Positions 40,529 to 64,000 of a stretch of 64,000 nt of DNA are shown one piece after another. The DNA is taken from positions 248,001-312,000 of the forward strand of contig NIVC01001293.1 in the NCBI GenBank assembly GCA_002269645.1, read 5' to 3'. Source of the DNA: Macrostomum lignano. Taxonomy: Eukaryota. The position numbers and the translations under genes are program-made. Below the pieces are notes generated by a model. The model was not told the DNA's origin and did not search any database. It saw nothing but the letters and a program-made list of their open reading frames with translations. The stretch's first letter is position 1. Each line of letters begins with the position of its first letter.

Positions 40529-42564
40529 TTTCCAAGTATCGTCAGAACAAGTATGTCTATTTTAGAACCCCGCAGCATAAACCAGCCTTTTTATTCAATT
40601 TGCGATTCTCTTTTTAATGATATAATGAGCAATAATTAGTTTCATGCGCAAAAATAGCTACGCTTTAGACTCCCTGTAGCAAGTCAGAGATCGTGGGAGT
40701 GGAAATTAGCAGAACATTTCGTGGCTTATTATTTATAGAGGGTGAAATCTTTTGAATACATTGCGCTGCTAAATTACGCTTTAGAAATAGATACTTTATG
40801 ATTTTTTTGTGAAGCGAAAAATTAAAGATATAACGCGTGCGCAACTAGCAAAGGGGATGTGAAGCATTGGGTCCCGATTTCTCTTCGCCAATCCCTTGAT
40901 TTGGAGCCATTCTAGAGCCTTAAGTTCACATGAAATCCCCATTTCTCCCATTTCTCTCCACAGAGATCCCAAAATGCTAAAGTGACTGGGTTTTCGACAT
41001 AACGGGAAGCTATTTGGCTCCAAATGAAGGCATTGACGTAGAGAAACCGACTTTTTAAGTTCACATCCTCTTAAGTGTGGATGAAAAAAGGCTGTTATAA
41101 CATGACGTTTTAATCATTATCTCGCTAATTCGCAGACATCATTATTCTGACATGAGCTCAGAGCGAAACAGAATAAAATTAACAAAGATCTTCATTTCAT
41201 AGCGATGAAAGAAGTTTCCGACAGCTTAAATTTTTCAATAGAAAAACCCTACCAGCAGGTAAAGAAGAGTCAATGCAACAAATAAATTACTATTTTTTTA
41301 TCCCAACAGAATAAAAAGCAATGAATTTGAATTGCAGGCCAAGAGAAGCGCTAGGGATGGCTGATTGATGACTTACTGTGGGGCTCTTCCCCTCACCTAG
41401 TCGCAGAAGCAGCGGGCGATTGCCATTCAGATTCATTGTCTGAGCAGAGACAATGAGCAGCCACCGCTAGACCCCCTCCCCCCCCATCTGCGCGGGCGTC
41501 TCTTTGATGTTTGCCGACCCTACCGGGCTGGGTTTTGTTTGCTAGTATCCCATTGGAGCGTGTATATCTTCCCGCACGATGGCATGGCATGGAATACTAG
41601 AATTCTAGACGTCTGGACTGGAAACACATGGCCAAGAGCTTTTCGAAAAAAGTTTAAAAACGGTAACTTTTTACACGAATACATGTTAGTAAATTTCAGC
41701 CTTCAAAACTTTCCAAGAAACAAAGTCTCCAAAGTCGCCTTTGAGAATTAAAAAAATCAATAAACTGTGTTTGTTTGGTTTTAATCAACTTCGGAGCGAA
41801 TGTTGGTGATTTCTAGTTTAAATTGAATAAAACAGACAAAACCTAAGCAAACAATAGGAACGCCATGCAGTTGAGTCCGGGGAACAAAATTGTCATTTTT
41901 TGAGGCAGTCGGGTCTGTTTCCACTCCAGAGGCTCCTTTCAGACCTCCACGCCAGCCCCATGTCAGCTTTTCTGCTCCCCTCCACTCACCTCCCTTCAGC
42001 TCCGCTCCCCCGTCCCTCATAGAAACAAAGAACTTCACTCAGCAGCTCACGGAAGCCCCAGCGTGCTGAGCATAAACCTGTCAAATTTATATGACTACTC
42101 TTTCCGCCTACGTTGAGTTTGTATTATGACCATCAGAGCCCTCCCTCCTCCCTCATCAGCCCCTCCTCAGCCTCCGCCGCGGCTCAAACTATAATACAAA
42201 TTGGGCTGCGGGCCAAGTGGACTGAAAAACTATGCAAGTAGCTGCAGCAGTGCCATTGCTCTTCTCACTGCCGACCTACTCTCCCCTCCCCCATGTAGAA
42301 GGCACTGACCCAGGCGAACTGATTGTCCGAACACAGCTCTTCGGTGTTAAATTTATGTCTGGCCAAACTTATTTGCCCAGATATGATCGTCAGATCAGTA
42401 AATATAGATAAAGAGAGAGAGAGCTGTGCTTGGTCACATCAGTGGCTGGCTCGGATGAACGGCTTAGCAGGAATAGAAGCTTATTGACTCCAAATTAAGG
42501 TAAAGCAACGTGCCGCTGATTGTTAATTTTGTTTTGTTATTTTCGTCTGCTGTGGCATCCTTAC

Positions 42565-43555: not shown

Positions 43556-45885
43556 TCAAAAATTTTTCTCCAAACTCTCAACAAACATGCCCTCCTGGCT
43601 ACTGTTATAAGCACTATCCATAGTCGATCTCCCACTCTCGGACGCTTGTCCAACCTTAGCCGACGAAGAAGACTTCTTGCAGGCAAAAGCCGCTCCTAGA
43701 AGATTGTGCGCCAGTTCGAGCACCTCAACAAAGGTGAGCACGGAGCAGCCCAGATAGAGACCGGACAGACCGCCCACTTCGGCGAAAAAGCTGATTCCGG
43801 TGTAGGCCAGAGTCACAACGAGTCCGTTGCTGAGCTGCTCTGTACTGCTCAGCCTCACGGACAGGACCTGCGATTGCAGCTGCTCGTTGAAGTCCAGTAG
43901 CAGCCGCTGTCGGAGCTGGGAATCGGTAGAATTAACCAGACTAATATTGTCCAGCATTGAATAGAAATAGCTGATTAGTGGGGCCGATAAACTACTGGGC
44001 TTGGTTTGGGCCAACAGCAAACGCAATGTGTCAAGCATGTTTCGATTGTCAGTTCCCGTCGGCCAGGTGCCCGTTGACCTTGCCAAACTGTACGACTTCT
44101 CCTTGCATGGCCGGCGCTTCGCGCACGCCATGGCCGCATCGTTGCTGACGGATGCCAGTAGGGAAACGTTGGGTTTAACGTAGACTCCAGTAGCTGACCA
44201 GTTATAGCAGTTGATGACGTCAGCGTGATGGTCCGGCCTTGGATAGCTCCGCTCTGTGCAGTTTAGCAATGACTTGGTTCGCCTGTGCAGCTCTGGGCAG
44301 GTGAAACAACAGGGTAGATGAGGCTATTTGTAAATACGAGTATAATATTCAATTGAGAATAGCCTGGATTCCGGTAAGGAATACTGGATGCATACCGCAA
44401 TAGTGCATTTATGTTTCATCGCTATGCGTTCATTAGAGTATACCAACTCAAGTAATTTTAAGCGTTTATTAAGTTAGCTTCGAAATTTGTAATAAAAATA
44501 AGTTGAGATCGCTTGCTCTGCTGTCGACAGTACGAGCTAGAAGCTCGTCCTAGCGCGTCGGGAACTTTCAGTGATTGGGTCTCTTAACAGTGTCAGAGAA
44601 AGTTCTAATCACACTGTTTTGTGCCTCACATGCTGCTCTAACGACGCATTAATCGATTTTTCATGTTAAATTGGTCTGTTCAGTTGAAAAAACGTTTAAA
44701 ATAACGACAAGATCAATAATTGTACGTAGAATCGTACGCAGGAAATGTACGTAGAATAAAAATTTACATAGAATCCTAATTCTTTGAACAAAAAGCTTTT
44801 TGAATATCGATAGAGCAATAAGAAAGGCACAACATATCAAAAGATGAACACTGGATCTGCCTCCTATGTTTGAATTTTCATTCCGAATAAAACAAAATAA
44901 ACTCACCATCGTAATAGCAGTAGTCGTAGCTGTACCGGCTGCTATAGGGCTGGTCAGGCGAGTAAGGGTTGTAAAAGCGGACCTGTCCCTCATCTGGCAA
45001 GCACTCGTCAGTCAGCATCTTGTGGTCCATCTCGGCCTGGAGCATTGAGATGCCCAGCTCAGTGAATGTACCGGGCCTGAGCAGCACCGAGGCAGAGCTC
45101 AGCTCACTGGGATAAGTCCCCGGCTCCGTTAAGAACAGCCTCAGCGCGGCTGGCTTCATGTAATCCAGGCCGTCAAGATAGCTCCACTGTGTTGGCATCA
45201 CGGTTGCGTTGCTATTAGCTCTGGAGTAGAATATCTGGTTATTTGGATCACTGGGAAACTGCAGCATGTGACTGTCGACGCTCAAGTAGAATTGCACAGC
45301 GTTTGCTGGATCTCTCAGAGCATCTCTTAAAGCATCGGACAGCACCAGCTTGGTGCAACGCATTCCGTTTGTGTAGTAGAACGGCTCAACCGTCAGAGGA
45401 GCCAGTGGATTGTTGACTGCAATAGCGGACATCACTGTTTGCTCAGTGCGATGGCCCAGCAAGTCTGCAACCAGTTTAATTGGTAGCGAGTTCAGCACAG
45501 CTCGCATCAGTACATAGATGTAGTCATTGCCTTTGTAATGAGGCCCAAACTGATTCATCAGTAGATCAATTCTAGATCTCAGGTATTCGGCCTCAGTTGC
45601 GTTCAAGCTCATCGAGTAGCTACCGGAGAAGATGTTCCATGGGCAGATGTACACGTCGGGAAAAACAAAGTTCATATAGTCCTTGTACAGAGATGTGCTG
45701 TGAGCCCCGCTAGCGTATCTCACGGCCGAGTTGAATAAGCAATATCCAAATAGTGCGGACACCGCGAGAAAAGCCAGAGCCCACAAACATTTCAGGTGAG
45801 TTGGTCGATTACCCGTCACTAGGCGATTTAAACCGTGGGCGGTTGTCTCCGTGGCGAACTGGCTGAGCTGTTGGCGTAGGAGCAT
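43556..45885 (-). CDS. DEG/ENaC (ASIC-like) channel; exons 45885-44907, probable small exon ~44632-44589, 44323-43556
   Basis: TTAHG pre-TM1 motif, TM1 LWALAFLAVS, FPDVYICPWN, RPCKEKSY, TM2 FFAEVGGLSGLYLGCSVLTFVEVLEL. The middle exon is not securely defined. Confidence 0.85.
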
Positions 45886-47202
45886 CTGGGAGCAGCTGCT
45901 GATGGTAGAGGGGCTGTGCGGCTCTGCCAATTGAGATGTTGGTTGGGCTTCAATTATTTTCACAGCACAGCTGCTATTGAGCTATCTACTGTAGCAATGG
46001 CTATTGCTAGTTCCAGTAAGAAAGAACACCATTTTGAATGTACCGGAGTTTCAGTTTCAGCTAGGTTCAGTGGATGCTTATAACTATAACTGCATTTTTA
46101 GTGTCATAAAGTTTCGGTGTTCGATTGGCCGCTTCTATACCGTACCTTTTTTGTTTCCGTATGAACTGTTATAAACTAATTAAATATGTAATCAAAACTT
46201 TCTTTTGAGCCCTAAATTCTTACCTGATTCAGCCAGTCGATCAGTTGTCATAGCCGTCAGCAAAATGTCTAAGAGGTTTTTTTAAGTCTAGTAAAATGCG
46301 ATCCTGATAAAATGTTATATACTAAACTGTTAGCTACAATGCCATGAACCAATGGCTAGTTTAAAGCTTTATAATTTATCCATTTTCCCTATCGGAGTCA
46401 ATACCCCTGAAGAGAAACGAGAATTAATCGTGCAAATATTGGAGTATTTGCATTAAGCAAGCCAAGCGACTGCGAATGATGGACCAAAATCAACAGCGCT
46501 TAATTTAATGTCTCATTCATTCGCCATAGGAACACGGACGGGATCACGATGGTAAACACTGGGGAACTTATTTACTGTAGAGACTGTCTTTTGAGTCAAT
46601 AATAAGTCAAAGCCATTTTTTGGGTATACGAGCGTAATATACAGGTGCGAGCTCAAGGCTGATCGATCGTGCAGTAAATCAAGGTGCACTTACAGAACCG
46701 CTACTCGCACAAATGTCTGGCCACAGTAAGAATTGAGAAGCCTTGAGTCGGATTCAGTCTTGTTGCCCTGCTAAGGGCAGTTTTAAAGGGTAGTTAGGTA
46801 CTGTTGCGACGCGCAGAAGTAAGACGGCCCCTTTACTACGATCCATGCATGAGCATTGCATGTATACGCTAGAGCTGTTGCTCCATGTACATGCATGGGG
46901 ACTCATGCTCATGCTTATCGCCCGTCCCACTTCCCCGCGCACCAACCCCCACCTGAAATAAATCATGAGAGGGGCAGCTTTACACGACCTCCAATCTACC
47001 CAAGCTTTCCCCACCTGTTACGTAATCCCCCATCATTAATCACTTCTCTCCGCTGTGCCCCTACCTGATTTCTCGGCCAATCACAGTGCGTCTGCCGGCG
47101 CGGGTGACGTCATTAGGGTTGTTTGTAATGGAGGTCCAAGGACAGGTCTCAGCCTTCAATGTCACACATCACACGCTCACGTGATCGCGTGACGCGTGAT
47201 CT

Positions 47203-48399: not shown

Positions 48400-50799
48400 C
48401 CCCCGGAAAACCGGGCCGAGAGCGAGAATGCCGCCCAGGTGGTGGCCCCGCCCTCGATTTAGGCTACGGTAGTCTTCATAACCAAGCCAGGGAAGGGAGA
48501 CTATCACTCTGCCAAGCTTACCGCCCTATCAGTCTGACGTCTTTCTTCCTCAAACTAATGGAACGGCTGATGCCCAGGCGCCTCCTCCTCGTAGAGCTGA
48601 GGAACTCCCCGTTCTCCCCCAATCAGCACGCTTTTCGTTCTGGACGCTCCATCGAAAGTGCGCTGCACGCCATTGTCGACAAGCAAGAGCGCGGTGCTTA
48701 GCAGTGGATACACGCTGTCGCTTTTCCTCGACATTGATGGTGCTTTCAATAATGTGCTTTTTGAAGCCTTTAAGCGGGCCCTGGAATCCCGGGGCACGCA
48801 CGAGCACCTTACCCGCTGGATCATGTACATGGTTTCCCATCGTACTGCCACTTCACACCCCCTGGGACACTCCCGCTCCGTGGAAGTCCAGAAAGGCGGA
48901 CCGCAAGGTGGAGTCCTCAGCCCGATCCTCTGGAACTTAGTCATGGACGAGCTGCTTTGCAGCCCGCATCCGGACCCAGTTCAGAAGGTCGGCTATGCGG
49001 ACGATGTTACCGCCACTGTGGCTGGACCATCGCCCGCGGTCCTCAGGGACCTCCTTCAAGCCTTCATCCACCGTGCCGAGCGCTGGGCACATAGCTGCGG
49101 TTTCAGGTTCTCTGAGTCTAAAACCGTGGCTATCCTGTTCACCAGCCGCCAAAACTGGAGAATCGAACCGCTCTCCTTCTATGGCAAACCCGTTGCCATG
49201 GAGAAACAAACCAGACGTCTGGGCGTCACCCTCGACCACAGGTTGAGCTGGACCCCGCACGTCCAAACTAAAGCCCACAAAGCTCTTGCGACTCTCGCGC
49301 AGATCCTCAGAGCTTTCGGTGCTGCCTGGGGCCTCACCCCCCGCCGCCTCTGGTGGATTTACACTGACATTGTTAGACCGGCCATCTCCTTCGCCGGCTT
49401 CATTTGGAACAGTGCCCTAGAGGTGAAAGGGGTTCTCGAGGTTCTTAATAGGGTACAGGGCCGCGCTTGTCGAGCTATCATGAGCGCGACTCCTTCCACT
49501 CTCTTCGCTGGCATGAACTCCTTCTCGGACATTCCCCCCTCGACCTCTTTGTTAGAGGGGAGGCAATGAAAACCACCCGCCGTCGGCTTGACGCGGGTGT
49601 CCAAATCCAGAAGCAGTTCGCCTTCAGAAAGCGGAACCTCCGGCCGCATAGCGACCTCAGCCTGCGAGACCTGGAAGCGGCGGGAGGCCTGCTGACCCTT
49701 TCGGACGGAATCCCGTCCACGCTCTGCCCTCCGCTCAAATTCAAAACCAGCATTCCACCACGTCACGAAGCAAGGGACAACTGGAAATCCCGTGAAATCC
49801 ACTGCTTCACTGACGGGTCCCAAATCAACTCCGCCTCTGGCTACGGCTACTGCATCGTGTCTGGAGGGAGAACTGCGGCGACCTTCTGCCAGCACACCGG
49901 CACCGCTCCACCGTCTTCCAGAAAGAAGTTCTTGCCATCAGCTCCTGCGCCATGGAGCTGTACAATCAGCGCGTCTGGGGGAAGGAGATTACCCTCCACT
50001 CGGACAGTCAAGCGGCGATTCACGCCCTTGAGCGCACCACCACCTGCTCGCGTACAGTCCATGACTGCATCGGGCAGCTCAATCGCTTAGGCGCCTCTAA
50101 CAATGTGTCCCTAAGGTGGATCCCTGGACATTCGGGCCACCCCGGCAACGAGCTGGCCGATCGCCTGGCCAAGGCTGGCTCGACCGGTTCTTTTACTGGT
50201 ACCCTGCCCGCGGCACCCACCCCCATCGCCGTTGTCATCACTCGGATCAACCAGTGGGTGGCTTCTAAGCACAGGGAGAGGTGGGCTAACGCCCCCGACT
50301 GCCTGCAATCCCGCGCGGCCGCTGTCCCCTGTCCTTCCTCCGCCCTGCGCAGGGCCCTGCTTGGACTCAACCGCAGGGACATCAGGGCGGTTACCATGGC
50401 CCTCTCGGGTCATGGCTGCTTTGCCAGGCATCGTCACCTCCAGGGAAAAATCCGCAGTGAGGAATGCCCTTTCTGCCTCTCCGGTGTCGAGAATGCGGAG
50501 CACTTCATCTGTGAATGCCCCGCCTTTACTCAGGACAGGCTCACCTACCTCGGCTCAAACCCAACCTCTCCGACGTTTTCAGGCCCGAGAATCTCTGCCA
50601 GCTCGTCCGCTACCGAGCGACAATCCACCTCCTGGACTCTCCGGAGGGGGACCGCGCTGCGGACACCGGCACCACCGGAACTCCCTGCGCGACACCGCAT
50701 TAGCTGCCCGTGGTCGCTAGGGGTTAGCAAAATGGGCGGCAACGCCTCCTCGCTGTTTCCGGTCGCACGGAGCCCCCTGCAGCTAAGTCAAGTCAAGTA
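48400..50799 (+). mobile_element. 5'-truncated, frameshifted non-LTR retrotransposon with RNase H (R1/LOA/I-group)
   Basis: YRPISL, FLDIDGAF, PQGGVLSPILW, YADD; RNase [32 protein letters not shown]; C-terminal CPFC...EHFICEC; (TCAAG)n tail at ~50783-50799. Confidence 0.92.
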
Positions 50800-51159
50800 A
50801 GAAGGTGTGAATAGATTAGGAGCCTGCCACTGGACAGCCTTGGTCCCAAGAAACGCCACAGCTTTCCGGATTTGATTAAATACAGCTGTCTTGCTGCTCG
50901 GGCATTGATCGCTACCAGCAGATTAAGAATCAATCAATCAATTTCGAAACCAATCTTGCAAGAACGATATGTCAACAACTTGGTGACAGAAAGCTATAGA
51001 ATTTATTTAATACATGTACGTGAGGACGATAAAGTATTAGTACAACTTGGTGGTAACAGTAGGATAATTTTAGCGCAGAAGCAAAACGCCTGTAACAGCT
51101 TGGTGTAGTTGGTGGCAATTTTGGTATTTTTCAAGAGATATAGCTCTTGCTATATAACG

Positions 51160-51410
51160 CAGGGCTTATAAATAGGAACCTGTTAAGCCTTGAGCAGAAG
51201 ATATGTTACCTTACCCTATACCTTATCCTTTACCCTTTACTTTGCTGTGCTGTTGTCTGGGCTTCGGTCCTAAATTTTTTTGTTCTGTTTTCTAGCGAGA
51301 CCCTGAGAAACTCAGCACCCGAATGGGCAACTCTTTCTATCTCTCTGGGGGGATGCTTTCACAAGGTTGAAATTTCACAACAACAAAAATTCTAGCAAGG
51401 GACTTCATAA
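51160..51410 (+). repeat. ~250-bp direct repeat, copy 2
   Basis: Diverged match to 47203-47450. Confidence 0.85.
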
Positions 51411-53876
51411 GGTCCTTGGACTATCGAACTAGGACTATCGAAAGTCCCGACTTCCATATGGATAGTGCTACGTGATCGTAAAACGAAATAATACCGCCAG
51501 AAGCCTGACAGTAACAGTACGGCTATAAGTCTAAAGTCTATAAGCATACTTTGTATTTAAAAGATAATTTATAGGCCTAGCCTTCTGTTCTGCTGAAATT
51601 TTGGTGCAAATACCAACTGGATTCCGGTTGTTTCGCCCCCAAACTGTTTCGGCCATGGACATTTCGCCCCCAGACCATTTCGCTCATAGTTCGTTTCGCC
51701 CATAAACCAGTTTGGCTATAGGCGTTTTCGACGTATGAAACATTCGCCGACACTTATTCAGACACTTCTACAGACACTTTAGTTTCTGTCGTACGAATCG
51801 TAGGAACAAGCATTAAATTTGTTTATTCCTTACAAACTATCAGTAAACTGCTTTATTTTAAGCTTTTTTGCTTTATTTTATTAAATATGAATTAGGAAGT
51901 GTCCTAGACAAATTTAACATTCTTCTTTACGTGAATAGAATCTATGCAGAATAACAAATTTCATGATTTCATGAGAGTGAGGCCTGAGATAAATAAGCAA
52001 CCAAATTATTAGCCAAAAAAGCTAAAGGGTCCTTTACACTAATACACAAAAAGGTCATTTACTATCGCAATGCAAAAAAGGTAGAAAAAGTAGAAGAAAG
52101 ATGAAAAAGTTCATTTTGAAGCGCAAATTTCTAGCTTTCCGGTTTTTTCAAGCTTGTAAAAGAACATTTAAACAAATCTTCGCGTGAATAAATTTTCCGC
52201 TGTAAATAGTATCGCCGAAAAAGCATAAAAAGCAACTATATTATTTGGTTATAAGGTTCTACTACGCAATTTGAAAAAGTCTTTTATTGTCACAACGTAA
52301 AAAAGGTCATTTATTGTCACAACACCGGCGTATTTTTGAGAATGGGCGTGCACTACATTTATTTCCGGCGTGCATTTGTAATTATTCAATTTTTGTACGG
52401 GCGTGCACCCAGCATGATCCGGACTATGGCTTTAACTGTCTAGCCATATATCAGTTTGCTTTTTGGTGCCTTAGTCTATGACACCTAAATAATAAAAAAG
52501 TAGGCCCCTAATTTTATAACAAATATAATATTAATAATAATTTACCAAACATTTCATTTATCTAATAAAAGCAATATCCATTTTGTTAAATTGGCATGTT
52601 TCCTAAAGTTATAAAAACTCTAGGGCCTATTTGATTTAATTGTAAGCATCTACTATAGGCCTATCCTGTATATATAAGGCTACACTTAATAAACATCAAA
52701 CTCTTTATAATATATCACGTTGAAATAATTTAGAGTGGGAAACCAAAGGATTGCCAGCATGTGTATTAAGATAAAAATACTTAAGTAAAGATGAAATCTA
52801 TCAACTAGAACTAGGCCTAGGCCTATGGCTATGCTATATATAGTTTTGATCAAAATTATGAAATCTAACAATTCCATTTTAATATTGATTTCTTAAGCCA
52901 TATGATTGTTGGCTCAAGTGGGGGGGGGCTTGAACTATTTTCCTTTAGCTGAGAAGCTGCTAATATCTGCTTTTTATTTTGGACAACATATTGTATCATG
53001 GCTGGACAACTACCAAGACCCTCGTGAATAGTTCCGCCGAATGTGGAACAGTTGCCCAGTGACAAGCTCTGTATCCGCGCCACTAGAACACAATGACGAG
53101 TTGGCAAGTTTGGCAACCAGGGAGCTAAAAACTCTGCCACAATCATTAGAATGGTTTAAAACATCAATTTTATTGTTATTGTTTTCTGGTTTCGAACTTT
53201 CAAATTTAAACGAAAAATAATTTCGCAAACGAAACTGCACTATTGCCGATTGTTTTTTCTTGACTTAAGAAATTGGGACAAAAATTTAAATAGGCCTATT
53301 ATAATAGACTTTTAAAAAAAATAAAATAGTAGATCAGCTTAACAAAATGAATAATAGTAATATCCTAGTTTTTTAAGCAAAGAAGGGTGTAAGACCAAGA
53401 TGGCCACACACCAAGATGGCCATAGCTGGGGTGGGGGTCACGGAAAATGACAACTGGTTTTCTATTGTATAGCTTCGGGAGGGGAGATCAGAAATATGGG
53501 GTTTCAATGGGGGGAGGTTCGACAGGCAGTCAAAATTTTATTAGTGTATTGTAGGGTTAAAGACAAAAATGGTTACGAGTCTTAATTTCCTACTTATAGT
53601 AGCCCATAAGAGGTGTAAACATATTTCATATTAAACAAATCTTTTCTACATATAAAATCAGGTGTAGCTTTTTTCAGTTTCTCTTATTGGTTGAGACTAA
53701 TTTACTTGTTAAAAAAGGATAAAAACTGGGTAAATTTCATGCCCTGTTCAAAGTTCATCTGTTTCATTCACTGACAGCAGTCTAAGTCTAAGCACTTAGA
53801 TACAAAATGGCAGGTGCATATCCATGTGTGGTCAGTAGAATGCATGAGGGGGCTTCTGGGACAAAATTTTTCACCT

Positions 53877-54075
53877 CCTCCATAATCCCATTAAATCCAT
53901 CCACATTATCCCTGACAGAATCAGAAAAAAGGGGGTCGCACTCACTCACAAAACGTCCTCCATAATCCCATTAAATCCATCCATATTATCCCCGACAGAA
54001 TCAGAAAAAAGAGGGGCCGCACTTGCTCCGAAAACTTCGATTATAATCCACCTAATATCCATCCATATTATCCCC
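53877..54075. repeat. ~80-bp direct repeats (x2.5) in the Polinton terminal region; partial copy at ~54690-54735
   Basis: CCTCCATAATCCCATTAAATCCATCCA..TTATCCC.GACAGAATCAGAAAAAA starts at 53877 and 53957. Confidence 0.85.
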
Positions 54076-54161
54076 ATCACATTGCAATGCTTGCAACTAT
54101 TTATCTAAGGGAAAAATGTAAAACTACCCTCTAGGGCACCAGCTACAGAGCCAGCTACAAA

Positions 54162-54425
54162 TGTTCCTCAGCCGAACAAATGTTCCTCAACCGAACAAAT
54201 GTTCCTCAGCCGAACATTTGTTCCTCAGCCGAACATTTGTTCCTCAGCCGAACATTTGTTCCTCAGCCGAACAAATGTTCCTCAGCCGAACATTTGTTCC
54301 TCAGCCGAACAAATGTTCCTCAGCCGAACATTTGTTCCTCAGCCGAACAAATGTTCCGCCGCCGAACAAATGTTCCTCAGCTGAACAAATGTTCCGCCGC
54401 CGAACAAATGTTCCGCCACCGAACA
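54162..54425. repeat. 14 x 19-bp palindromic array TGTTC-CTCAGCC-GAACA-(AA/TT)
   Basis: Units start every 19 bp from 54162 to 54409; each has inverted TGTTC/GAACA arms. Confidence 0.93.
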
Positions 54426-54763
54426 TGTACAGAGCAAATATCTCTCCCCCCCATGCAAAAGCTTCATGTGGATCATGCCCTCACTAACTCAGAGTACGCA
54501 GGCCCCGTATACAGAGAGAACCTCTCTTCCTATGCACAAGCTTCTCCTCTCCGCGTACATTTATTTCTACATAGCAAGTTCTCTCTCTTTCCACTTCTCT
54601 AAGTACAGTCAATCCCGCGACACGTTTAAGCTACGTAAGGAAGAAAGCTTATTTATACAACCACTTGCAGAGCTACTCGGTTAAAAATGTATTATCCCTG
54701 ACACAATCAGAAAAAAAGAGTGGGTCACACTTACCCTTTGAAAAAAATAAATTCTCAATAAAA

Positions 54764-55000
54764 ATGCTTCCAGTTGTCTGTCCAGGTTCTTATTACAAAG
54801 CGCACGAGCCTAATTACAAGAGTAGGTACCAATGCAAACTAGAATGCAGCGAGTACATGAGAAAATATTGGCCCGGCATTGAAATCAATGTCCCTAATAT
54901 TAATCAAGCACTTAAATCTCACTGGTTTGAAAAACATGGAGTAGTCATTAACGATTTTGACAGCTACTATAACTTTGCTGAAGTTATAAGGCAGTTGTAG
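54764..55000 (+). CDS. Small Polinton accessory ORF (78 aa), unknown function
   Basis: AAAAATG start context shared with the other viral genes; converges on the penton gene; C.GSYY...C..EC. Confidence 0.55.
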   Translation: MLPVVCPGSYYKAHEPNYKSRYQCKLECSEYMRKYWPGIEINVPNINQALKSHWFEKHGVVINDFDSYYNFAEVIRQL

Positions 55001-55061
55001 TAGTCAACTACAAGGTTGTACCTGGCGGCTTATATCCTAATTTAACAAGTCTGAAGACGAC

Positions 55062-55919
55062 TCACATTCTCTCAATAATAATTGTTAACATAAACTCTTC
55101 CCCGTTAAAATCGACACCAACTCCATCCTCTGTTTCAAACTGCAGAACGATTTCATGTATCTCCCTATTACTCAGAATCACTCTTTTCACAGGGTTTGGC
55201 TTTTGCACAAGCATTTTGCCACCAGCAACAGAGTTTGAAATGTTAAAAAGTATGTTGGTTCGTTTGCCTTTGAATATCCAATCATGGCTCAGATTGCTAC
55301 GAATTAATATATTCAAACCTTTGACAATGTCAGCGATATTTGGCGCCAAGTACATACCGGATATTAGCCGGGACACAGCAACAGTGCCAGGCGCCTGCAG
55401 CGGGCTTTGGTCTGTGGCGCCACCATAAACTCTCTTTTCAAATCCCAACTCGCGATACCAAGTGCCATCTTTAAACTCTACCTCTGCGTCCTTATGAACT
55501 TGCAAGATAACTCTCATGACAGTTAGATCATAAGTTAATCTAACAGGGAACAGTTTATTTTCTGGTTTGCTTTCATCCGGTATCTCAAAATGCTTTCGTT
55601 TAGTGAAGACGTTCTCCAAGAAGTAATTATAAGTATCCACGCTCTGTGTGCTGACAGGAAATATCACAACCTCTGTTGTAGTACGCTTCCATTTGTAATA
55701 AAACTTGTTATTTTCCGCTGTCACATTGGGAACATTTGACCACCCAGTGAAATCATTGAGATAGACGTGGTAATTCGCCTCGGGATCCAAACGAAGTGGT
55801 TGCTCCAATTTTTGAATGAAGATTCCGTTTGACTCAGTAATGCGACCCGCTACAGTGATTGGAATGCTCTCCTTAGAGTGTGAAACAATGTTGTTCAGTC
55901 TTTTGGCTATGGCTTCCAT
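55062..55919 (-). CDS. Polinton minor capsid protein (penton, single jelly-roll), 285 aa
   Basis: LEQPLRLDPEANYHVYLNDFTGWSNVPNVTAENNKFYY and C-terminal EIVLQFETEDG..VDFNGE fit the Polinton penton pattern; adjacent to the MCP. Recognised from motif memory, not a search. Confidence 0.75.
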   Translation of the reverse strand: MEAIAKRLNNIVSHSKESIPITVAGRITESNGIFIQKLEQPLRLDPEANYHVYLNDFTGWSNVPNVTAENNKFYYKWKRTTTEVVIFPVSTQSVDTYNYFLENVFTKRKHFEIPDESKPENKLFPVRLTYDLTVMRVILQVHKDAEVEFKDGTWYRELGFEKRVYGGATDQSPLQAPGTVAVSRLISGMYLAPNIADIVKGLNILIRSNLSHDWIFKGKRTNILFNISNSVAGGKMLVQKPNPVKRVILSNREIHEIVLQFETEDGVGVDFNGEEFMLTIIIERM

Positions 55920-55941
55920 TTTTTTATTGAAAAAAAATTAT

Positions 55942-57237
55942 TCAAACTTTACTAGACAAGTTATTGATCATATTGACCTTGATCTTCCTCTCAAATGCAT
56001 AGATAATAAACAGATCAACAGCCGTTGCGGCACCAAATTCTTTACGCTCGATATTAGTCACAATGTTAACGGGGCTATTGTCTGTAGGCATTTGTCTAGC
56101 AGTCACATCAACACCAAATATTGGATATAGTTTTTTATACTGCAAGGTTGTCAAAACAATACCGTTATTCTCTTTGACAGCCAGGTCCGACAGTTCATTG
56201 TAAAACTTACTAATCTTGTTCTCCGAGAAATTCCCATTTTGTGGCAATGCAGGGTATAAATTGTCACTGATCTCATGTTGAATCGATCGAACGTTTCCAT
56301 GTAGATATCTACCTACATTAGTTGTATTCCTCATAGTGACAATAATGTACCTTGGATTGCTACAGGAGCCTTCTTTAATGCAAATATTGTGTCTTGCGTC
56401 ATTCCGCTCATCTCTGCACATATAAGCTGTATAAGCAACATCAATGTCTTTCTCAATCGCCTTCAAGTATTCAGCTTTGAGTGCAGTCTTGGGCTCAATA
56501 ATTTCTAGGTACAGCTCCACGCCAGTTAGCTTAATCTCCATCGATGTATGATTGGCCCCCGACCAAATTCCTCTGTTCCGATCATCTCTAGTCAGTCTAA
56601 ATGTGTAGCTAAAGTTGCTTGTCAACCGATTGAAACTATTACAGAAACCACTCATAAACCTCAAAGGTACAAAAATATCTACAGACCTAAACAGCGGATT
56701 CTTAGCAGCATCGTTCTCACCAACAAGAGCATAGTTGTATCTCTCCTTTCTCTTTTTGTAACCAGGGTCATTCTCATCTCCTGTCTGTTCATTGGGGATG
56801 AATCCAGCACCGCTCCCCATCTGAATAAAATCCGGGTTCTCAATCAAGCACTGGGTATCATAGACCACACCAAAGTTTGCTATTCTTTCCAATTCTGTAC
56901 TTCCATTGGACACATTAAACTCTTTGAACATATAAGCCCAGAAATTACTGGTTAGTGCGACATCCGCATTGTGTAGATCATCATTAGCATGAGCGGCGTC
57001 TGCGCCTCCTTTAGTTTTGAATTGATACGTCATATAGAAGCCGCTCCTTAGACTGTGCACACTAACCAAAGACGAACATCCATTGTATGTAAATGTCAGT
57101 GTTTGACCAGGACCAAGATTAGTTTCATTCTGATTTTCCTGACTGGGAACTCTTACCTGAGTCGCTTTGATTGTGCTATCATCACTCAAAATAGGCTTGT
57201 TAATTTTGTAGAAAACTGGTGTCAGTGGGTCGTTCAT
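55942..57237 (-). CDS. Polinton major capsid protein (double jelly-roll), 431 aa
   Basis: Size, beta-rich composition, PRYIIV / YPALP / YPIFGVDV motifs, and position beside the penton in a PolB/ATPase/protease cluster. Confidence 0.78.
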   Translation of the reverse strand: MNDPLTPVFYKINKPILSDDSTIKATQVRVPSQENQNETNLGPGQTLTFTYNGCSSLVSVHSLRSGFYMTYQFKTKGGADAAHANDDLHNADVALTSNFWAYMFKEFNVSNGSTELERIANFGVVYDTQCLIENPDFIQMGSGAGFIPNEQTGDENDPGYKKRKERYNYALVGENDAAKNPLFRSVDIFVPLRFMSGFCNSFNRLTSNFSYTFRLTRDDRNRGIWSGANHTSMEIKLTGVELYLEIIEPKTALKAEYLKAIEKDIDVAYTAYMCRDERNDARHNICIKEGSCSNPRYIIVTMRNTTNVGRYLHGNVRSIQHEISDNLYPALPQNGNFSENKISKFYNELSDLAVKENNGIVLTTLQYKKLYPIFGVDVTARQMPTDNSPVNIVTNIERKEFGAATAVDLFIIYAFERKIKVNMINNLSSKV

Positions 57238-57267
57238 TTTTTAACTAAAAATAAAATAAAATAAGAA

Positions 57268-58500
57268 ATGAAGCGAAAAAGTACACAGCAGATATCTGAA
57301 TTGGAGAAGCTAGCACAAGCAGAGAAACGAGTTACCGGGCTAATAAATAAGGAGCAACAATCCTACAATGAATTCGTCCAAGCAGCCACCGAATTTCACA
57401 AACCCGGATACACAGAAGCGAAGAAAAACCTCGACACTGTGAAGGAAGCAGTTGATGATATTCAAGAGAGCCACTTGCAAAACACATTGGGTAAAATCCC
57501 ATCTTCACTGGGACAAACACAGGCTCAGCAACCAGGACAACCAGTGCAGATGAATGTGAAGGATAACTTTTTTGGCCCCGTATTGGATGATGGAAAATAT
57601 ATTTTTGGAATTAGCGACTGGCGAAAAAATATTACCGGGGAACCGGCGGATTACAACATTGAAGTGACGAAGGAAACTATTTCAATCAATAAAGGCGCAG
57701 AAACTAAACGAATCCCCTTCACTCAAACTTTACTTGATTACATGACTAAAAATCAGGAAAAAAGATCCGAGAAGCAGCTAAAAAATTACAAAGATCTTGT
57801 TACCTTTGCTCTTGATAGGGACATAGACATTCTCAAGAACAACGGTGTTTTGAAAATTTTACATGAAAACGGGATTGTCTTGAACAATTGTAAAAAATAC
57901 AAATACTTTAAACAATGGTTTGGTTTGCCGGATCAAGAAGAGGTCATAAGACAACAAACACAACAACCACAACCGCCACAACAACCACAACAGCAGCAAC
58001 CACAACCACAACCACAACAACCACAATAGCAGCAACCACAAACACAACCACAACCACAACAACCTCCACCGCCACAGCAACCTCCACCGCCACAGCAACA
58101 AAAAACCCAGGTTGAACAAGTACTTGATCAACTTGACACTGTAGACCCGATTCTTGTTTCGCAGTACAAAGATAGAAACCCTGATACTTGGCGACAATTA
58201 GAACAGTTCTCCCCAGAACGAATGAAGCGAATCAATGACAGAGTATTCACACCTAGGCTACAGCAACCCTCACCAGGAACATCCTTCTCTGACCAATCAT
58301 TCGAATCACCACCAAGCTCTTCCGGAAAAGGCATGCCTGAATTCTACAAGCGAGTAGCGGTTCTTCTAGGAGCGGCAAAGACCGGAATGAAAGATGAGAA
58401 TAGAAAAGAGTTCGTTCACATCCTCAATAAAATGCTTGAGAGAAAATACATCGATAAGAGGGCGAGAGAGCTTCTGCTTTCGCGGTTCAACAAAAAATAA
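57268..58500 (+). pseudogene. Polinton protein with a Q/P-rich linker and conserved C-terminal helical motif, interrupted by an in-frame TAG at 58027-58029
   Basis: ORFs 57268-58029 and 58222-58500 are in the same frame; the TAG sits in a CAA/CAG repeat; C-terminus RVAVLLGAAKTG...EFVHILNKML..KYI. Confidence 0.7.
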
Positions 58501-58516
58501 TTTATTTCAAGTAAAA

Positions 58517-58888
58517 ATGCCACTTATTTTCGAAAAAGACATTGACAAATACTATGACAAAGAGGAACTTAATCTCATTAAACGCGGATCTGGACTTTTC
58601 CCTGCCGGCCACTATCCAAGAAAAGAACGCTCTGGGAATGGCCTTGCCGATTTGATCGCTCAGGGGGCCAAGATTTTTAAGGTCATTGGAGAGAACATCA
58701 AGAACGTTGCCGAAGCGGCTGGCAGTGTAGCCACAGCAGCCAAAAAGATTAAAGATACGGTTCATGAAACCCGGAAATCAATACAAGATATTCAACCCCT
58801 TGCACCGAGTGCAGATAGTGTCGATCCAGCCATCTACGCAAAGATGAGAGCTGAATATAAGAAAGGAGGCGGTTTTAAATTTGACTAA
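58517..58888 (+). CDS. Small basic Polinton protein with GxG motifs (putative protease-processed core/membrane-active protein), 123 aa
   Basis: AAAAATG start; RGSG, SGNG and KGGG motifs; amphipathic LADLIAQGAKIFKVIGENIKNVAEAA. Confidence 0.7.
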   Translation: MPLIFEKDIDKYYDKEELNLIKRGSGLFPAGHYPRKERSGNGLADLIAQGAKIFKVIGENIKNVAEAAGSVATAAKKIKDTVHETRKSIQDIQPLAPSADSVDPAIYAKMRAEYKKGGGFKFD

Positions 58889-59083
58889 TTTGGTGCACCC
58901 TGACGGTAAAAGAGGTGTGAGGGTGTAGGACTAGTCGGATGTAGGACTAGTCGAAAAAAGACACACACAACCCGAAAAAGACACACACATCCCGCAAAGA
59001 GACACACACATACACATCCCGAAAAAAGACACACGCGTCTTAAATACACAAGTTTAAAAAGAAAAAGTTTTTTTACATAAAAA

Positions 59084-59884
59084 ATGGACTTCACAAACGA
59101 CTTTCATCCCCACTGGACACGCAATCAGATAAAATTTGCTCACAACGAGATAATTCCAGGGCACTTCCGATGCATTGTTGTTGGCTCATCTGGGTCAGGG
59201 AAAACCTTCAGAGTTTTTAACATGCTCCTCAGACCTGGATTCCTTGATTATGACACACTACATATCTATTCACCCACTCTGTATCAAGATGAGTATAAAA
59301 TGCTAGTAGCGGGCCTACAGAACAAACTCAACAAGGAAGATATTATTCAATGTTTTAGACATCAAAAAGACCTCAACAGCAACCCGGAAGTTGTAGCCAC
59401 TGAATACGCAAAGCACATCCCAGACAATGAAAAATGGCAAAATATTAAAGTTTTCACTTATGGAGATCCACAGATAGATCCTAAAACTAAACTCTTACCT
59501 CAACCTGATGAACTAGAAAAGGGGAGAAAGCACCTGATTGTCTTTGATGACTGCATGACCGGTCCCCAGAAACAGATAGAAAATTATTTCACCCGGGGTA
59601 GACACAATAACTGCAATGTTATTTACATTGCCCAAAACTGGTTTGAACTGCCAAATAAAACAATTAGAGGTAACTGTAATTTGATTCTCCTTTTCCCAAC
59701 CATACCACAGGATCGACTGAAACGATTTTATAATGAGGTCATTGCCCCAGCTCACATTACATATCCAGCTAAAAACTCTAACAGAACAATATCACAGGAG
59801 GAATTTGTTAACATATGCTATGAAAAGTGGAACCAACCCTATCAGTTTGTCATGATTAATAAGGAGAAAAGAATTTTACTTTAA
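59084..59884 (+). CDS. A32/FtsK-type genome packaging ATPase, 266 aa
   Basis: Walker A GSSGSGKT, Walker B LIVFDD, FTRGRHNN and IAQ motifs. Confidence 0.93.
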   Translation: MDFTNDFHPHWTRNQIKFAHNEIIPGHFRCIVVGSSGSGKTFRVFNMLLRPGFLDYDTLHIYSPTLYQDEYKMLVAGLQNKLNKEDIIQCFRHQKDLNSNPEVVATEYAKHIPDNEKWQNIKVFTYGDPQIDPKTKLLPQPDELEKGRKHLIVFDDCMTGPQKQIENYFTRGRHNNCNVIYIAQNWFELPNKTIRGNCNLILLFPTIPQDRLKRFYNEVIAPAHITYPAKNSNRTISQEEFVNICYEKWNQPYQFVMINKEKRILL

Positions 59885-59901
59885 TTTTTCATTTAAAAAA
59901 A

Positions 59902-60711
59902 ATGTCTATTAATTTTGCTGGTGAGTCAACTACAGGCAACAGCACTCTCACAACTTCCTTCCTTGACAAGCGCTACATTAACACTGATGAAGAGATCCCA
60001 GAGATCAAACTGAATAAAAACAGACTGAAACAATTAGAACGCTCCATGCACCAGTTGCAAATAAACATGGAAGATCTCAGGCTTAAAGTAGCTAGGCAGA
60101 AGTTTGAAAGTGATAAGCTTTATGTGCCGTTGTTAAACGCAACTATTGAACTAAGGTCAGAAATAACTTCGATAGTCTCGCAAATCAACAGCTTAAGATC
60201 GACAGTTAATCTTCTGGGAAATTCCACTGATAGACGGATGCGTATTCTTGAAGGAGGAGTTTTCACAAACACAGCTAAAGTAAATAATTTAGAAGAGTTC
60301 ATGAACCAGTCAACAGCGTTGCATGATAGAATTAAAGAAAACGTCGCAACCAACACAGTTAAAGTAAATAATTTAGAAGAGTTCATGAACCAGTCAACAG
60401 CGTTGCATGATAGAATTAAAGAAAGACTTGAAGCATTAGAGAAAAGCGATGTATCACACAGTAGCTATCTAAACGGAATGTATAGCTCTTGGGGTAAAAT
60501 AATAAGGAGGCTTGATCGTCTGGAGAGAACACTCAATCTTCGTGATATTGCTATTGATGAAGCAGAATCTACTGCTCGTCCGGTCATGTCTACAGATCGA
60601 GTAGAAGGAGCTCTGGACCCCGCTGGAGTAATCCGGCACGCTCTCAAACGTCAGCCGCCCAGCCGCTGCCTGCTGGACTCGCGATCCTCCGGCGTCACGA
60701 GAGCCGCCTAG
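59902..60711 (+). CDS. Coiled-coil protein (putative fibre/spike), 269 aa
   Basis: Heptad-rich; internal 84-bp (28-aa) duplication; A-tract start. Confidence 0.7.
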   Translation: MSINFAGESTTGNSTLTTSFLDKRYINTDEEIPEIKLNKNRLKQLERSMHQLQINMEDLRLKVARQKFESDKLYVPLLNATIELRSEITSIVSQINSLRSTVNLLGNSTDRRMRILEGGVFTNTAKVNNLEEFMNQSTALHDRIKENVATNTVKVNNLEEFMNQSTALHDRIKERLEALEKSDVSHSSYLNGMYSSWGKIIRRLDRLERTLNLRDIAIDEAESTARPVMSTDRVEGALDPAGVIRHALKRQPPSRCLLDSRSSGVTRAA

Positions 60712-60801
60712 ACAACCGGCGGTGCAGATGGAATTATCAAAAAGAAAACAGATCTTTCAACCGGATAGTTTTATAATTTTTTTATTTTTTCTAGGGAAAA
60801 A

Positions 60802-61521
60802 ATGGCCCAACAAAATTCTCTATACGATCAGTCTAAATACGCTGAACCTAAAATACCGACAGCACCAAACCCAATGGCACCGAATTCGAACACACAAAGC
60901 CTGAATGCACCGAATCTGAATGCACCTCAATATGAGCAACAAAAACTTTACCCCGTCATTACTTGTAACTCTCAACAGTTTCGACTGGTAGAGATTCAAA
61001 AAATGCGGGATGACATTGAAAACAATATTTTCCACAACACAAAGAAAATTAAGCGCTATGAAAGCCACTGTAAATTTTTCGACTACAGCAATATGATTCT
61101 AGGATCTGTGTCTGTTCTATCTGGATCTGCTGCGGCTGTCTCAACGTTGCCAGTCATCACAGCCCCAATCGCAATCCCACTCGGCTCTGTGGGTGCTGCA
61201 TGTGGATTTATTTCAGCAATTACTGGAGCATTAGCGCGAAACAGGCGAAAAAAACTAAAGCAGCTACAGGAGAAGCAAGTAAAAGAGAAAGGGGTGCACA
61301 CTTCAATCATAGGGTACATTTCAAGGGCAATCGAGGATAAGTTCATTTCAGAGGATGAGTTCAAAACCATTCAGGATCTTTATGAACAATCAATTCGAAT
61401 GAACTTGAACATGGTCGGTACTGATGACATGAGTCAGCTGAGAAATGAACTCGAGAAAGTTCTTCAACATTATGTGGAAAGAAAGTCGGCAAGAAGGACA
61501 ACGAGAAATACACCACAATGA
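60802..61521 (+). CDS. Two-TM Polinton membrane protein, 239 aa
   Basis: QQFRLVEI, Gly/Ala/Ser-rich hydrophobic hairpin (aa ~97-143), basic RNRRKKLK, ISRAIED..ISEDEF. Confidence 0.75.
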   Translation: MAQQNSLYDQSKYAEPKIPTAPNPMAPNSNTQSLNAPNLNAPQYEQQKLYPVITCNSQQFRLVEIQKMRDDIENNIFHNTKKIKRYESHCKFFDYSNMILGSVSVLSGSAAAVSTLPVITAPIAIPLGSVGAACGFISAITGALARNRRKKLKQLQEKQVKEKGVHTSIIGYISRAIEDKFISEDEFKTIQDLYEQSIRMNLNMVGTDDMSQLRNELEKVLQHYVERKSARRTTRNTPQ

Positions 61522-61525
61522 ACCC

Positions 61526-61927
61526 TTATGAAACACAGCCAAGAATAATTTCCTTGTAGGTCTTTCGTGTTTTGGTCATTGCATACAAAACAGTCATGCA
61601 CAGCTCACCGCAAATATCACTGCTAAGACCTTGGAGAATAAAGTCTGAGCGATAAATTTTTTTATTGTTTTTCCCCTTCATATAATTTCTTAGCTCTTCT
61701 GGTACTGCCGTCCCATAGCTATCGAAGTAATAACACTTGTGCTTGCGATCGGGATCAATCACCCAGCAAACCCAATGAGATCCTGGCTTATCGGTGGTGT
61801 CAAAATTCATGATGCCGCATTCCTTTCTTAGAGGAAAATCAGGCAGAGTGTCCCTCATAAATATTCCTCTAAAGTTTGGGATTTCCAGTTCGTTAGCCAA
61901 AGCTTCAAGAAAGTTATTTGTTGTCAT
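61526..61927 (-). CDS. Adenain-like cysteine protease (virion maturation)
   Basis: FRGIFMRD, GSHWV (His), FDSYG (Asp), LQG (Gln), ICG (Cys); ATG at 61927. Confidence 0.92.
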   Translation of the reverse strand: MTTNNFLEALANELEIPNFRGIFMRDTLPDFPLRKECGIMNFDTTDKPGSHWVCWVIDPDRKHKCYYFDSYGTAVPEELRNYMKGKNNKKIYRSDFILQGLSSDICGELCMTVLYAMTKTRKTYKEIILGCVS

Positions 61928-61979
61928 TTTTATGAGGTTTATTAAACTTTCTCTTAAACCTAAACCTAATCTCAACCTC

Positions 61980-64000
61980 CTAAACCCAATCTCCTAAACC
62001 TAATCTCCAGTGCCCGAACGGTAGACTGTTAATATTGTCATCAAAAATGAATCTCTTATTATCTGCACCTGACAGTCCAATCTTTTTTTGCTGAATTGTG
62101 TGAATAATATGGTTTTTGGATTGTAGCTTTGAGAACTCATGTGATGTCTTTTTGTTGCAATTCAAGGCGTCTCTGTATTCAGCTTCATTAATTTCCTTCC
62201 TAACCACGCGTTTTGGAATTCCCTTTGATTTTTTAATTGGGTCTGACGACTCACATTTTACAAAATAGGACTTTGCTCTCAACCCAATGAATTCAGTGAT
62301 TATGTCACCAGCAATCTCGTCCTTCATTTTCCCAATCACTTTCTTGTTAGTGGCGTCAAACACTTGATCGCCATTCTGTGTCCTGAAAGATTCATCATAC
62401 TCAGACAAGTCAAACAAATCTTTTTGCTGCAGCATGTCCTGATAAATGTCTTCTGTTTGAATGTCCATAATAAAACTGTCTGTGTCAGTGTACAAGAGTT
62501 TCATTTTATCCTTGTACTGCTGCTTCATGCCATACAAGAACTGGTACATCAGACGTTTTGATTCGTCGAGAACAGTGACACCTGTATAGATCGGCTTGCG
62601 CAGCGTCACCTTGGTTTTGTAAAATATGATCACACCTAAGTAGCTATTAAAGATATGGAGTTCTTTGAATGTTGGCTTTGACATATTTGCCTGAATAACA
62701 GCAGGCTCTGATGAGGTAACAAGTTTCAGGTTTGTTCTTTTCCGCTCATTCTCAAGAGTCTTGCCATAGACAGAGTTGTTGGCCAACTTAAAGAGGTTCT
62801 TGTCAAAGTCGTTGGTTGCTTTGGTCCTAAACTGGGTATTCTTATCAATGTAGGGTTTCATCCACGCTTCCTCTGTAAATGTAAGAGCCCGGTGAACTTT
62901 AGTGACCCTGCAACCAAGTGAGATAAAATACTGAAGCAGTTTGTAATGGATTTTGTAACGTGTCTTGTTGTTTAGATTCTGTGTTAGTTTCTCTGTATGT
63001 TCTTTTTCTGTTCCTGACAGGTGCCAAGTTCCATTATTATCATTGGGAGTTTCGATTATTTTCGGGCACTTGATGTTCTCTGGGAAGGGTGGAAAGTCAG
63101 AGAAATAGTCGTGAAGCTCTGGTGGAATGTAAACATCAACCTCATAAATGGCAGCCAATGAAAAGTCCCATTTGAATTCTGATGAGGGTAGCCATCGAAA
63201 ATCTCTAACTGGAAGATCTTGACTCATCGCCCACCCGTAGAGATTATTAGCGTCCAAGTAAGTAATGTAGTTTGAGGGCTGCTCCTTATTGTAAGATTCA
63301 ATGTAGGGATTGTTTGCTTTTGCATACCTGTTAACGCAAATTGAGATTCCCCCTCGCTTTGACGATTCGACAAAATTGTACATGTCAATGTCTGTAAGAA
63401 GTTCAATGTACCAATCTGGATCTTGATCCCATTTCATTTTAACAAAGATTCCCAGCTAGTGGCAGGGAGAGACACATAATGTGCTGGATCGAGGCCATAT
63501 GCTGTGTACCAGGTGTATCTGAAGGTTTCAAACACATCGGCCAGCAGAAACACATCTGTGTAGAGGTAAAGCAGGTGATACTGGAAGAAGTTTTGACAAT
63601 TAAAGTAATTATAGACATGCTTCGCGTGCTCATAGTCTTTGTCAGAGATTCCAGAGTCTGTTAGCTTTGAAAAGAACTTTTCTTGTGGTGGTAAACCTTC
63701 TCAAATACGTGATACCCAGTAATATTTTCATAGGGGTAGAAGCCTTTCTTTCTTAAAAGTTTAAATGATTCATCACTGTTGTTAATTTTACTTGCAAATA
63801 TCTTTGTATATGTACATTGTTCATCTTTTAGATTCTTGCTTAGTTCGTCTAGACTGGCCGCTAGAAATTGATATGAATCCTTCAGTCTTATTTTACCTGT
63901 ACCCGAATTATCCTGTTTAATATCAACGCACTTAAACTTCTCCTTGTTTTCTGCGATGCAGTCAAGGTGTATGTCTTGAATCATGCCGATTTTTTCAACT
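61980..64000 (-). pseudogene. polB: Protein-primed family B DNA polymerase with two single-base frameshifts (~63698 and ~63438); 5' part outside the window
   Basis: DSYQFL, KGFYPYE, YLYTDVFLLADVFE, YLDANNLYGWAM, KLANNSVYGKT, YTDTDS, GLRAKSY, KGI. Confidence 0.92.

Follow-up and report, generated by a model that had tools for sequence, protein, structure and literature searches.

We analysed a 64,000-nucleotide stretch of Macrostomum lignano DNA (contig NIVC01001293.1, positions 248,001 to 312,000; hereafter the window, numbered from its first letter). Its right-hand end carries ten intron-free open reading frames (ORFs) that occupy positions 54764-64000, lie 4-195 bp apart and leave 94.7% of this region coding. 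Seven of them reach 200 aa or more, while none of 200 shuffles gave a single ORF of that length. Five encode a penton protein, a major capsid protein (MCP, hexon), an A32-type packaging ATPase, an adenain-type protease and a protein-primed family B DNA polymerase (PolB). These five assignments had been made in a first-pass annotation of the DNA, and evidence from protein families, folds and motifs confirms all of them. The genes are preceded by a repeat-bearing non-coding region, and 10,673 bp are visible in total, so that the element measures at least 10.7 kb. Capsid folds, the families of the ATPase, the protease and PolB, and their motifs support its identity as a Polinton/adintovirus. Very probably, it is an integrated, now defective Polinton/Maverick (adintovirus, Eupolintoviridae), most likely of the Beta type, in an animal genome.

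Results

The MCP passes the Pfam cut-off for PF21738 (E 1.1e-8). Its predicted structure, computed from a 115-sequence alignment with a predicted local distance difference test score (pLDDT) of 94.4 and a predicted template-modelling score (pTM) of 0.91, best matches the Sputnik MCP (E 2.3e-21, template-modelling score (TM) 0.65). It aligns with the PBCV-1 chain over 343 residues (Z 25.2, root-mean-square deviation (rmsd) 3.5) and, in BFVD, matches virophage, adintovirus and adomavirus models. The first-pass annotation had tied its virion claim to a double jelly-roll at 55942-57237, and this fold is indeed recovered. PDB sequence searches with MCP profiles gave nothing significant, so that the call rests on Pfam and the fold searches. 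For the penton protein a single jelly-roll is predicted from a model of moderate confidence (pLDDT 65, folded from 13 sequences), with pentons or capsid chains as the top fold matches throughout. Foldseek returned mavirus, Sputnik and adenovirus pentons, the best match being the mavirus penton 6g42 (E 3.6e-6, at a TM of only 0.28), and the top six VIA rows are all viral capsid entries, for example 6ncl_a6 with Z 9.0 and rmsd 2.8 over 110 aligned residues. Atlas searches with the penton and with the MCP relative P0001 pointed to viral or PF21738 clusters, with recognition scores under the threshold of the tool.

Homologues were searched in large databases for the MCP, PolB and the penton. Twelve penton homologues (53-63% identity) were found among 577 candidates. 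For the MCP there were 14 among 3767 candidates, seven at 66-76% identity, four at 40-44% and three at 23-25%, and the MCP belongs to a large family, since a profile search retrieved 2505 representatives at E<=0.001. At least 11 of the relatives are mutually different, the six closest differing by 15-27%; identity to sequences outside this clade is 23-28%. The close capsid relatives sit on contigs of 0.7-8.5 kb, with open frames. A quick maximum-likelihood tree of 84 rows (the window, 13 nearer matches and 70 of 104 full-length representatives, with no named references and with the fragments P0009, P0013 and P0148 left out) separates the window and 11 relatives from the rest by a branch 1.01 long (SH-aLRT 100). 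By these sequence comparisons the capsid forms a long-stemmed and unnamed clade of 12 sequences, and the capsid module is part of a distinct family that has several subfamilies. For the MCP relative P0002 and the penton relative P0143 the longest contig is 3702 bp in both cases, which suggests the same gene pair in a relative.

The enzymes complete this core set. The ATPase, a Pox_A32 match, contains Walker A, Walker B and RGRH; a PDB sequence search with it returned chance matches only. The protease matches the adenovirus proteinase 1avp (E 0.0016) and has the catalytic His, Asp and Gln/Cys motifs. In PolB, DANNLYG, KxxxNxxYGK and YTDTDS represent the Pol A, B and C motifs of a protein-primed polymerase. 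An ExoIII-like motif lies in the middle piece, and an ExoII-like motif, present in 30 of 34 long homologues, is absent from the visible pieces. The earlier statement that catalytic motifs are intact is thus borne out for the ATPase, the protease and the Pol A/B/C motifs. The DANNLYG type of the polymerase had also been singled out; the motif is there, but it marks nothing rare because 117 of the 120 homologues listed carry it. In all, 3722 homologues of the C-terminal PolB ORF at E<=0.001 were obtained among 6648 candidates. The best 120 are 42-47% identical, and the named ones among them come from corals, anemones, a crinoid, molluscs, a nemertean and a spider, and so include cnidarians and echinoderms. 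In a comparison with 38 of these 120 homologues, the window PolB sits on a branch of length 1.64 and shares no more than 48% identity with any of them. The homologue search covered proteins of 266-849 aa, so that close full-length relatives could be missed. Of the window PolB about 672 codons are visible, whereas flatworm PolBs measure 902-1,328 aa in 30 rows of a supplement filtered at 900 aa (PMC10748475). The polymerase domain has no PF03175 match, and the exonuclease piece reaches E 0.002, below the cut-off.

This copy is damaged. All three lesions noted in the first-pass annotation were found again: an in-frame stop at 58027-58029 in the otherwise unshifted frame of ORF4, and two shifts of frame within PolB, the homologues of which align in frames -2, -1 and -3 in turn, with breaks near 63690-63710 and 63410-63470. 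Both PolB breaks precede the polymerase domain, so that no full-length PolB can be made from this copy and, therefore, it cannot replicate itself. With two PolB frameshifts and the ORF4 stop, the element falls outside the definition of an intact Maverick (PMC8097293), and since integrase and right end are not seen either, the description as possibly virion-competent finds no support in this copy. Mavericks in vertebrate genomes are mostly degraded (PMC8097293). With three lesions over roughly 9.2 kb of coding sequence a young element is plausible, as far as the sequence can tell, and the insertion is probably fairly recent but defective. Private changes were counted as well. They affect 23 of 254 MCP columns (12-24 in four relatives) and 11 of 110 penton columns (1-6 in nine relatives), and in PolB 19 of 132 conserved columns deviate, compared with at most 7 in the others. 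We rejected this surplus as proof of decay, since in both the penton and the PolB set the window sequence stands furthest from the rest, so that the excess is confounded by distance. The window PolB averages 44% identity to a comparison set whose members average at least 51%, and distance alone may explain its departures at conserved columns.

The left end was placed at 53328, which reads AGTAGA and is one of six AGTAG[ACG] sites in 50800-54764. Of the flank motif TAGGCCTA the window has 12 copies, the last at 53291 and none inside the element. A left end at 53328 is plausible, though not proven, because it is the first such site past this last flank-type copy. Self-BLAST detected no inverted partner of this end within the window, and the right junction lies outside it; with no partner terminal inverted repeat (TIR) at hand, we only infer the left boundary. 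The sequence AGTAGA matches neither the (AGT)2 nor the (AG)3 end motif of vertebrate Mavericks exactly (PMC8097293). Two sets of repeats follow to the right of 53328, one a subterminal repeat of 80 bp (2.5 copies at 53876-54075), the other a tandem array at 54157-54425 in which a 19-bp unit with a palindromic core is present in 14 copies. The core, GAACA-NN-TGTTC, has 13 matches inside the element and none elsewhere in the window, and the array is a candidate set of binding sites for a dimeric protein. Three YY1-like motifs lie at 53397-53420 and 53804, less than 500 bp from the putative left end; the whole window contains 12. No rve integrase came up in a Pfam scan that covered the ten ORFs and 37 small frames of 50.8-55.1 kb; of the 41 frames there, the RNase H frame and three frames overlying the penton gene were left out. 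The label near-complete therefore goes too far for an element of which 10,673 bp are visible, with PolB cut by the window end and integrase, right TIR and target-site duplication (TSD) not seen. Polintons range from 13 to 25 kb (PMC10748475), and intact vertebrate Mavericks average 16.9 kb (PMC8097293). Coordinates are collected in Table 1.

Table 1. Features of the Polinton-type element in the window.
Feature	Position	Strand	Description	Basis or remark
Putative left terminus	53328..54763	.	terminal/subterminal non-coding region (candidate TIR)	boundary inferred
ORF1	54764..55000	+	accessory, 78 aa	T(A)nATG start
Penton	55062..55919	-	penton / minor capsid protein, 285 aa, single jelly-roll with insertion	model and fold search
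MCP	55942..57237	-	major capsid protein (hexon), 431 aa, double jelly-roll	PF21738 and fold
ORF4	57268..58500	+	~410 codons, with a Q/P-rich repeat linker; one internal stop at 58027-58029	Adintoc2 position
ORF5	58517..58888	+	candidate Cupiennin-like (pVI-like) membrane-active core protein, 123 aa	synteny
ATPase	59084..59884	+	A32/FtsK-type genome-packaging ATPase, 266 aa	PF04665, E 7.5e-7, passing cut-off
ORF7	59902..60711	+	coiled-coil, 269 aa, 84-bp internal duplication (60268-60424)	only weak sub-threshold SMC-type matches
ORF8	60802..61521	+	hydrophobic hairpin (residues ~109-145), 239 aa; candidate GasderminX or SLATT-like membrane protein	adjoins adenain
Protease	61526..61927	-	adenain-type cysteine maturation protease, 133 aa	PF00770 (Peptidase_C5), E 1.6e-4, barely passing cut-off
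PolB	61980..64000	-	protein-primed family B DNA polymerase, C-terminal part (~672 codons), three frames, cut in exonuclease region	homologues and motifs

The remaining five ORFs had been left without a function. Three of them, ORF4, ORF5 and ORF8, now stand at named accessory positions of Beta adintoviruses, by synteny only, and ORF1 and ORF7 have no such name. ORF1 has no Pfam match at the cut-off and none in PHROGs or NCBIfam; RNase T2 (Pfam) was rejected for it as below the cut-off. ORF4 lacks a significant family match in Pfam, PHROGs and NCBIfam. In ORF5 an amphipathic helix near residue 52 is equalled in 8% of shuffles and is not significant. It has three GxG sites (4% of shuffles) and no canonical adenain site as defined in 10.1101/341131, and Colicin (Pfam) was rejected below the cut-off. 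ORF7 is possibly fibre-like. ORF8 is the sole ORF with Kyte-Doolittle windows above 1.6; its weak SLATT_1 match (E 0.0097) stays below the cut-off, and a PDB sequence search with it gave chance matches only. Neither gasdermin nor cupiennin was matched in Pfam or PDB sequences. Across the set, PHROGs returned an ATPase-type match and two weak unknown families only, and NCBIfam sub-threshold matches only.

A feature shared by most genes is their start. A T(A)4-7ATG context opens 7 of the 9 complete genes, compared with 8 of all 382 ATGs of the element, the motif having been chosen post hoc. Such starts recall poxvirus late starts. An eighth T(A)nATG, at 54687-54716, precedes a four-codon frame, within a further copy, the third, of a 26-bp motif that belongs to the 80-bp subterminal repeat. 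The start codons of MCP and ORF4 are divergent and only 30 AT-rich bp apart (57238-57267), which leaves little room for two promoters, and nearby AATAAA or ATTAAA is absent for 8 of the 10 ORFs. Late-promoter motifs are not described in the paper on an entomopoxvirus-associated Polinton-like virus (PLV), in which TAAATG, promoter, motif and transcription do not occur.

The flank to the left of the element contains two ASC/DEG-ENaC frames, a rhodopsin-type G-protein-coupled receptor, an M13 peptidase, an alpha-kinase, LicD and retroelement remains, and the host is an animal because these are animal genes. The two adjacent long frames at 43556-45981 (-) belong to the amiloride-sensitive sodium channel family and cover profile positions 1-300 and 305-455; they are probably one DEG/ENaC gene with two large exons. 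The M13 (neprilysin-type) peptidase frame at 38396-40561 (-) is intron-free over 720 aa. Genes of this family are normally intron-rich, and the frame is possibly a retrocopy. At 4588-8210 (+), a VWA domain frame followed by an alpha-kinase frame makes up a VWA-alpha-kinase gene, and at 27221-28372 (-) the frame of a LicD/fukutin-type gene crosses two tandem arrays (27936-28312). A frameshifted non-long-terminal-repeat retrotransposon with reverse transcriptase and RNase H (48601-50800, +; 60% GC) lies about 2.5 kb left of the Polinton, and a GIY-YIG frame right at the Pfam cut-off (37025-37870, -) is probably the remnant of a Penelope-like element. Simple arrays are frequent in the window, the GC content of which is 46%, and both features are in keeping with Macrostomum. 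Among the arrays is a 4.5-kb satellite at 22124-26639 with a 19-bp unit, about 225 copies and strong strand skew. Rfam families and tRNAs were not found in the window.

Discussion

We show here that every defining feature of the Eupolintoviridae that can be decided within the window is present, namely PolB, a double jelly-roll MCP, a penton, the A32/FtsK ATPase and the adenain protease. Adintoviruses are split into an Alpha type with pfam03175-type PolB and PLA2X, and a Beta type with divergent PolB, GasderminX and Cupiennin (PMC8502044). Both types have an OTU domain at the N-terminus of PolB, a part of the gene that lies beyond 64000 here. The labels of Fig S2B in that paper, taken from the layout text of the PDF, run Integrase, Penton, Hexon, Adintoc2, Cupiennin, FtsK, Adenain/GasderminX, PolB and Oncoid, and the gene order from penton to PolB described here agrees with this label order (PMC8502044). 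The lack of a PF03175 match in the polymerase domain fits the Beta definition (PolB divergent from pfam03175; PMC8502044). From synteny and the PF03175 negative, the Beta type is likely. For PLA2X, a gene of the Alpha-type virion module, Pfam gave no PLA2 match among the ten ORFs; the element continues to the right of the window. By analogy of position alone, ORF4, ORF5 and ORF8 are suggested to be Adintoc2, Cupiennin and GasderminX.

The described Beta adintoviruses (Betadintovirus; Terrapene box turtle, Astyanax, Branchiostoma, Eucidaris, Pinctada and Rhodactis; PMC8502044) share with the element the order penton-hexon-accessory-ATPase-adenain-PolB, a PolB apparently diverged from PF03175, two candidate membrane-active accessory genes in place and an animal host. 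Unlike in these viruses, no integrase was found beyond the penton, the coiled-coil ORF7 is inserted between ATPase and ORF8, the copy is broken, and the MCP is only 23-28% identical outside its own clade. Vertebrate Mavericks are alike in core genes, intron-free ORFs and an end that starts with AG, and the candidate TIR region of up to 1.4 kb compares with 46-1,447 bp there (PMC8097293). However, their modules int-mCP-PW-MCP-pro and ppolb-atp-pm-pz are ordered differently, and AGTAGA stands in place of (AGT)2 or (AG)3 (PMC8097293). Virophages such as Sputnik and mavirus provide the best MCP and penton fold matches and share the module of ATPase and protease, but identity is only 10-12%, with 11-12% for the MCP, the MCP sequence family is PF21738 and the element resides in an animal genome. 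The flatworm Polintons of Jeong et al. 2023 (integrase-linked pPolB1/Group 2; PMC10748475, supplementary tables 2 and 3) are listed by their coordinates. A PolB with frameshifts such as the present one would not pass the 900-aa ORF filter of that study.

Following the known biology of the family, an intact relative would be excised or copied as linear DNA, which the protein-primed PolB would replicate from the terminal repeats. The A32 ATPase would then package the genome into an icosahedral capsid built from MCP trimers with pentons at the vertices, adenain would mature the particle, and cell entry would be aided by membrane-active core proteins (ORF5 and ORF8, by synteny). Re-integration would require the rve integrase, expected right of PolB. 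The present copy still has open capsid, ATPase and protease genes, which at best could function in trans.

Several points weigh against a defective Beta-type Polinton. Of the two genes that give the group its name, the integrase is not seen in the visible part, the element running off the window, and beyond the penton, where the Beta map has its integrase, only ORF1 and non-coding repeats are found. A TIR pair and a TSD, which in Polintons measures 5-8 bp and usually 6 bp, are not visible in the window, the right junction lying beyond 64000. The Beta class was assigned by gene order and the PF03175 negative, and the names Adintoc2, Cupiennin and GasderminX for ORF4, ORF5 and ORF8 reflect their places in that order. 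Finally, the frame breaks might be assembly errors. Were all three lesions assembly or sequencing errors, the element would be an intact, recently active provirus. The small number of lesions in about 9.2 kb, the survival of all checked catalytic motifs and a count of private MCP changes within the range of four relatives would suit this, but one lesion is a stop codon in an unshifted frame, the longest homopolymer within 30 bp of each frame break has only 3-4 bases, and penton and PolB show excess private changes, although both are confounded by distance. We consider an intact provirus improbable.

The unseen integrase also fits a MELD virus or PLV that lacks one and entered passively or by the integrase of another element. 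Integrase-less MELD viruses of animals have been described (cf. the Hydra and Anelosimus elements; PMC8502044), and neither the Beta-map position nor the 37 small frames left of the penton yielded the gene. However, the MCP falls into the large PF21738 family, PolB is of the common invertebrate type, and in 30 flatworm rows the integrase is often on the PolB side, from less than 1 kb to about 20 kb away (PMC10748475 supplement), a distance before which the window ends. An origin from such a virus is therefore unlikely in our view. Capsid genes that are open next to a broken PolB, together with a right junction outside the window, could also reflect capsid genes domesticated by the host, or a contig end that is a contaminant or a chimera, instead of a mobile provirus. 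Against this, PolB is twice as long as any other gene and would by chance collect more lesions, the whole viral layout is kept with gaps of 4-195 bp and no introns, and at least 11 mutually different relatives fit a mobile lineage with several families, so that we regard this explanation as very unlikely. The evidence taken together favours a defective Polinton.

A more speculative idea concerns the family and not this copy. The T(A)4-7ATG starts, the 30-bp gap between MCP and ORF4, the scarcity of AATAAA/ATTAAA and a long-stemmed capsid clade with open-frame relatives hint at a lineage that still circulates and forms virions, is possibly restricted to free-living flatworms and would be transcribed by a helper large DNA virus and not by host Pol II, provirophage-like but in an animal. 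The same data would follow from an A-rich context of translation starts combined with polycistronic or internal promoters, and we think a helper virus is quite improbable.

Adintoviruses are reported from all eumetazoan phyla (PMC8502044), cupiennin/gasderminX-type elements have been reported from insects in two preprints, and polintovirus genes are reported to be expressed in corals (PMC11131425). The first-pass annotation called such elements poorly characterised in flatworms. This stands for the capsid modules only, since pairs of PolB and integrase have been catalogued (748 pPolB1 genes linked to an integrase, from 8 of the 73 flatworm genomes listed; PMC10748475, supplementary table 2) and a Maverick expansion is reported in Dugesia (10.64898/2025.12.11.693146). 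A description of the present family was not found in the literature on Polintons/Mavericks in Macrostomum or Platyhelminthes, or on DANNLYG, the scope of which excluded subscription papers, Repbase and preprint supplements. Two assemblies of the flatworm catalogue, which we take to be Macrostomum lignano, account for about 175 and 78 of its rows (each row names the assembly twice, with 350 and 156 occurrences). What is distinct here is the unnamed long-stemmed capsid clade, the divergent PolB and the shared T(A)4-7ATG start; otherwise, the element is of a known kind. A single broken copy adds little; what it offers is a point of entry to a capsid lineage that has no name, with 11 relatives at 40-76% identity and the next at about 25%. 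If the host is indeed a tractable laboratory flatworm and intact siblings are expressed, this lineage would offer a whole-animal system for particle formation by germline Polintons and for the drivers of their transcription.

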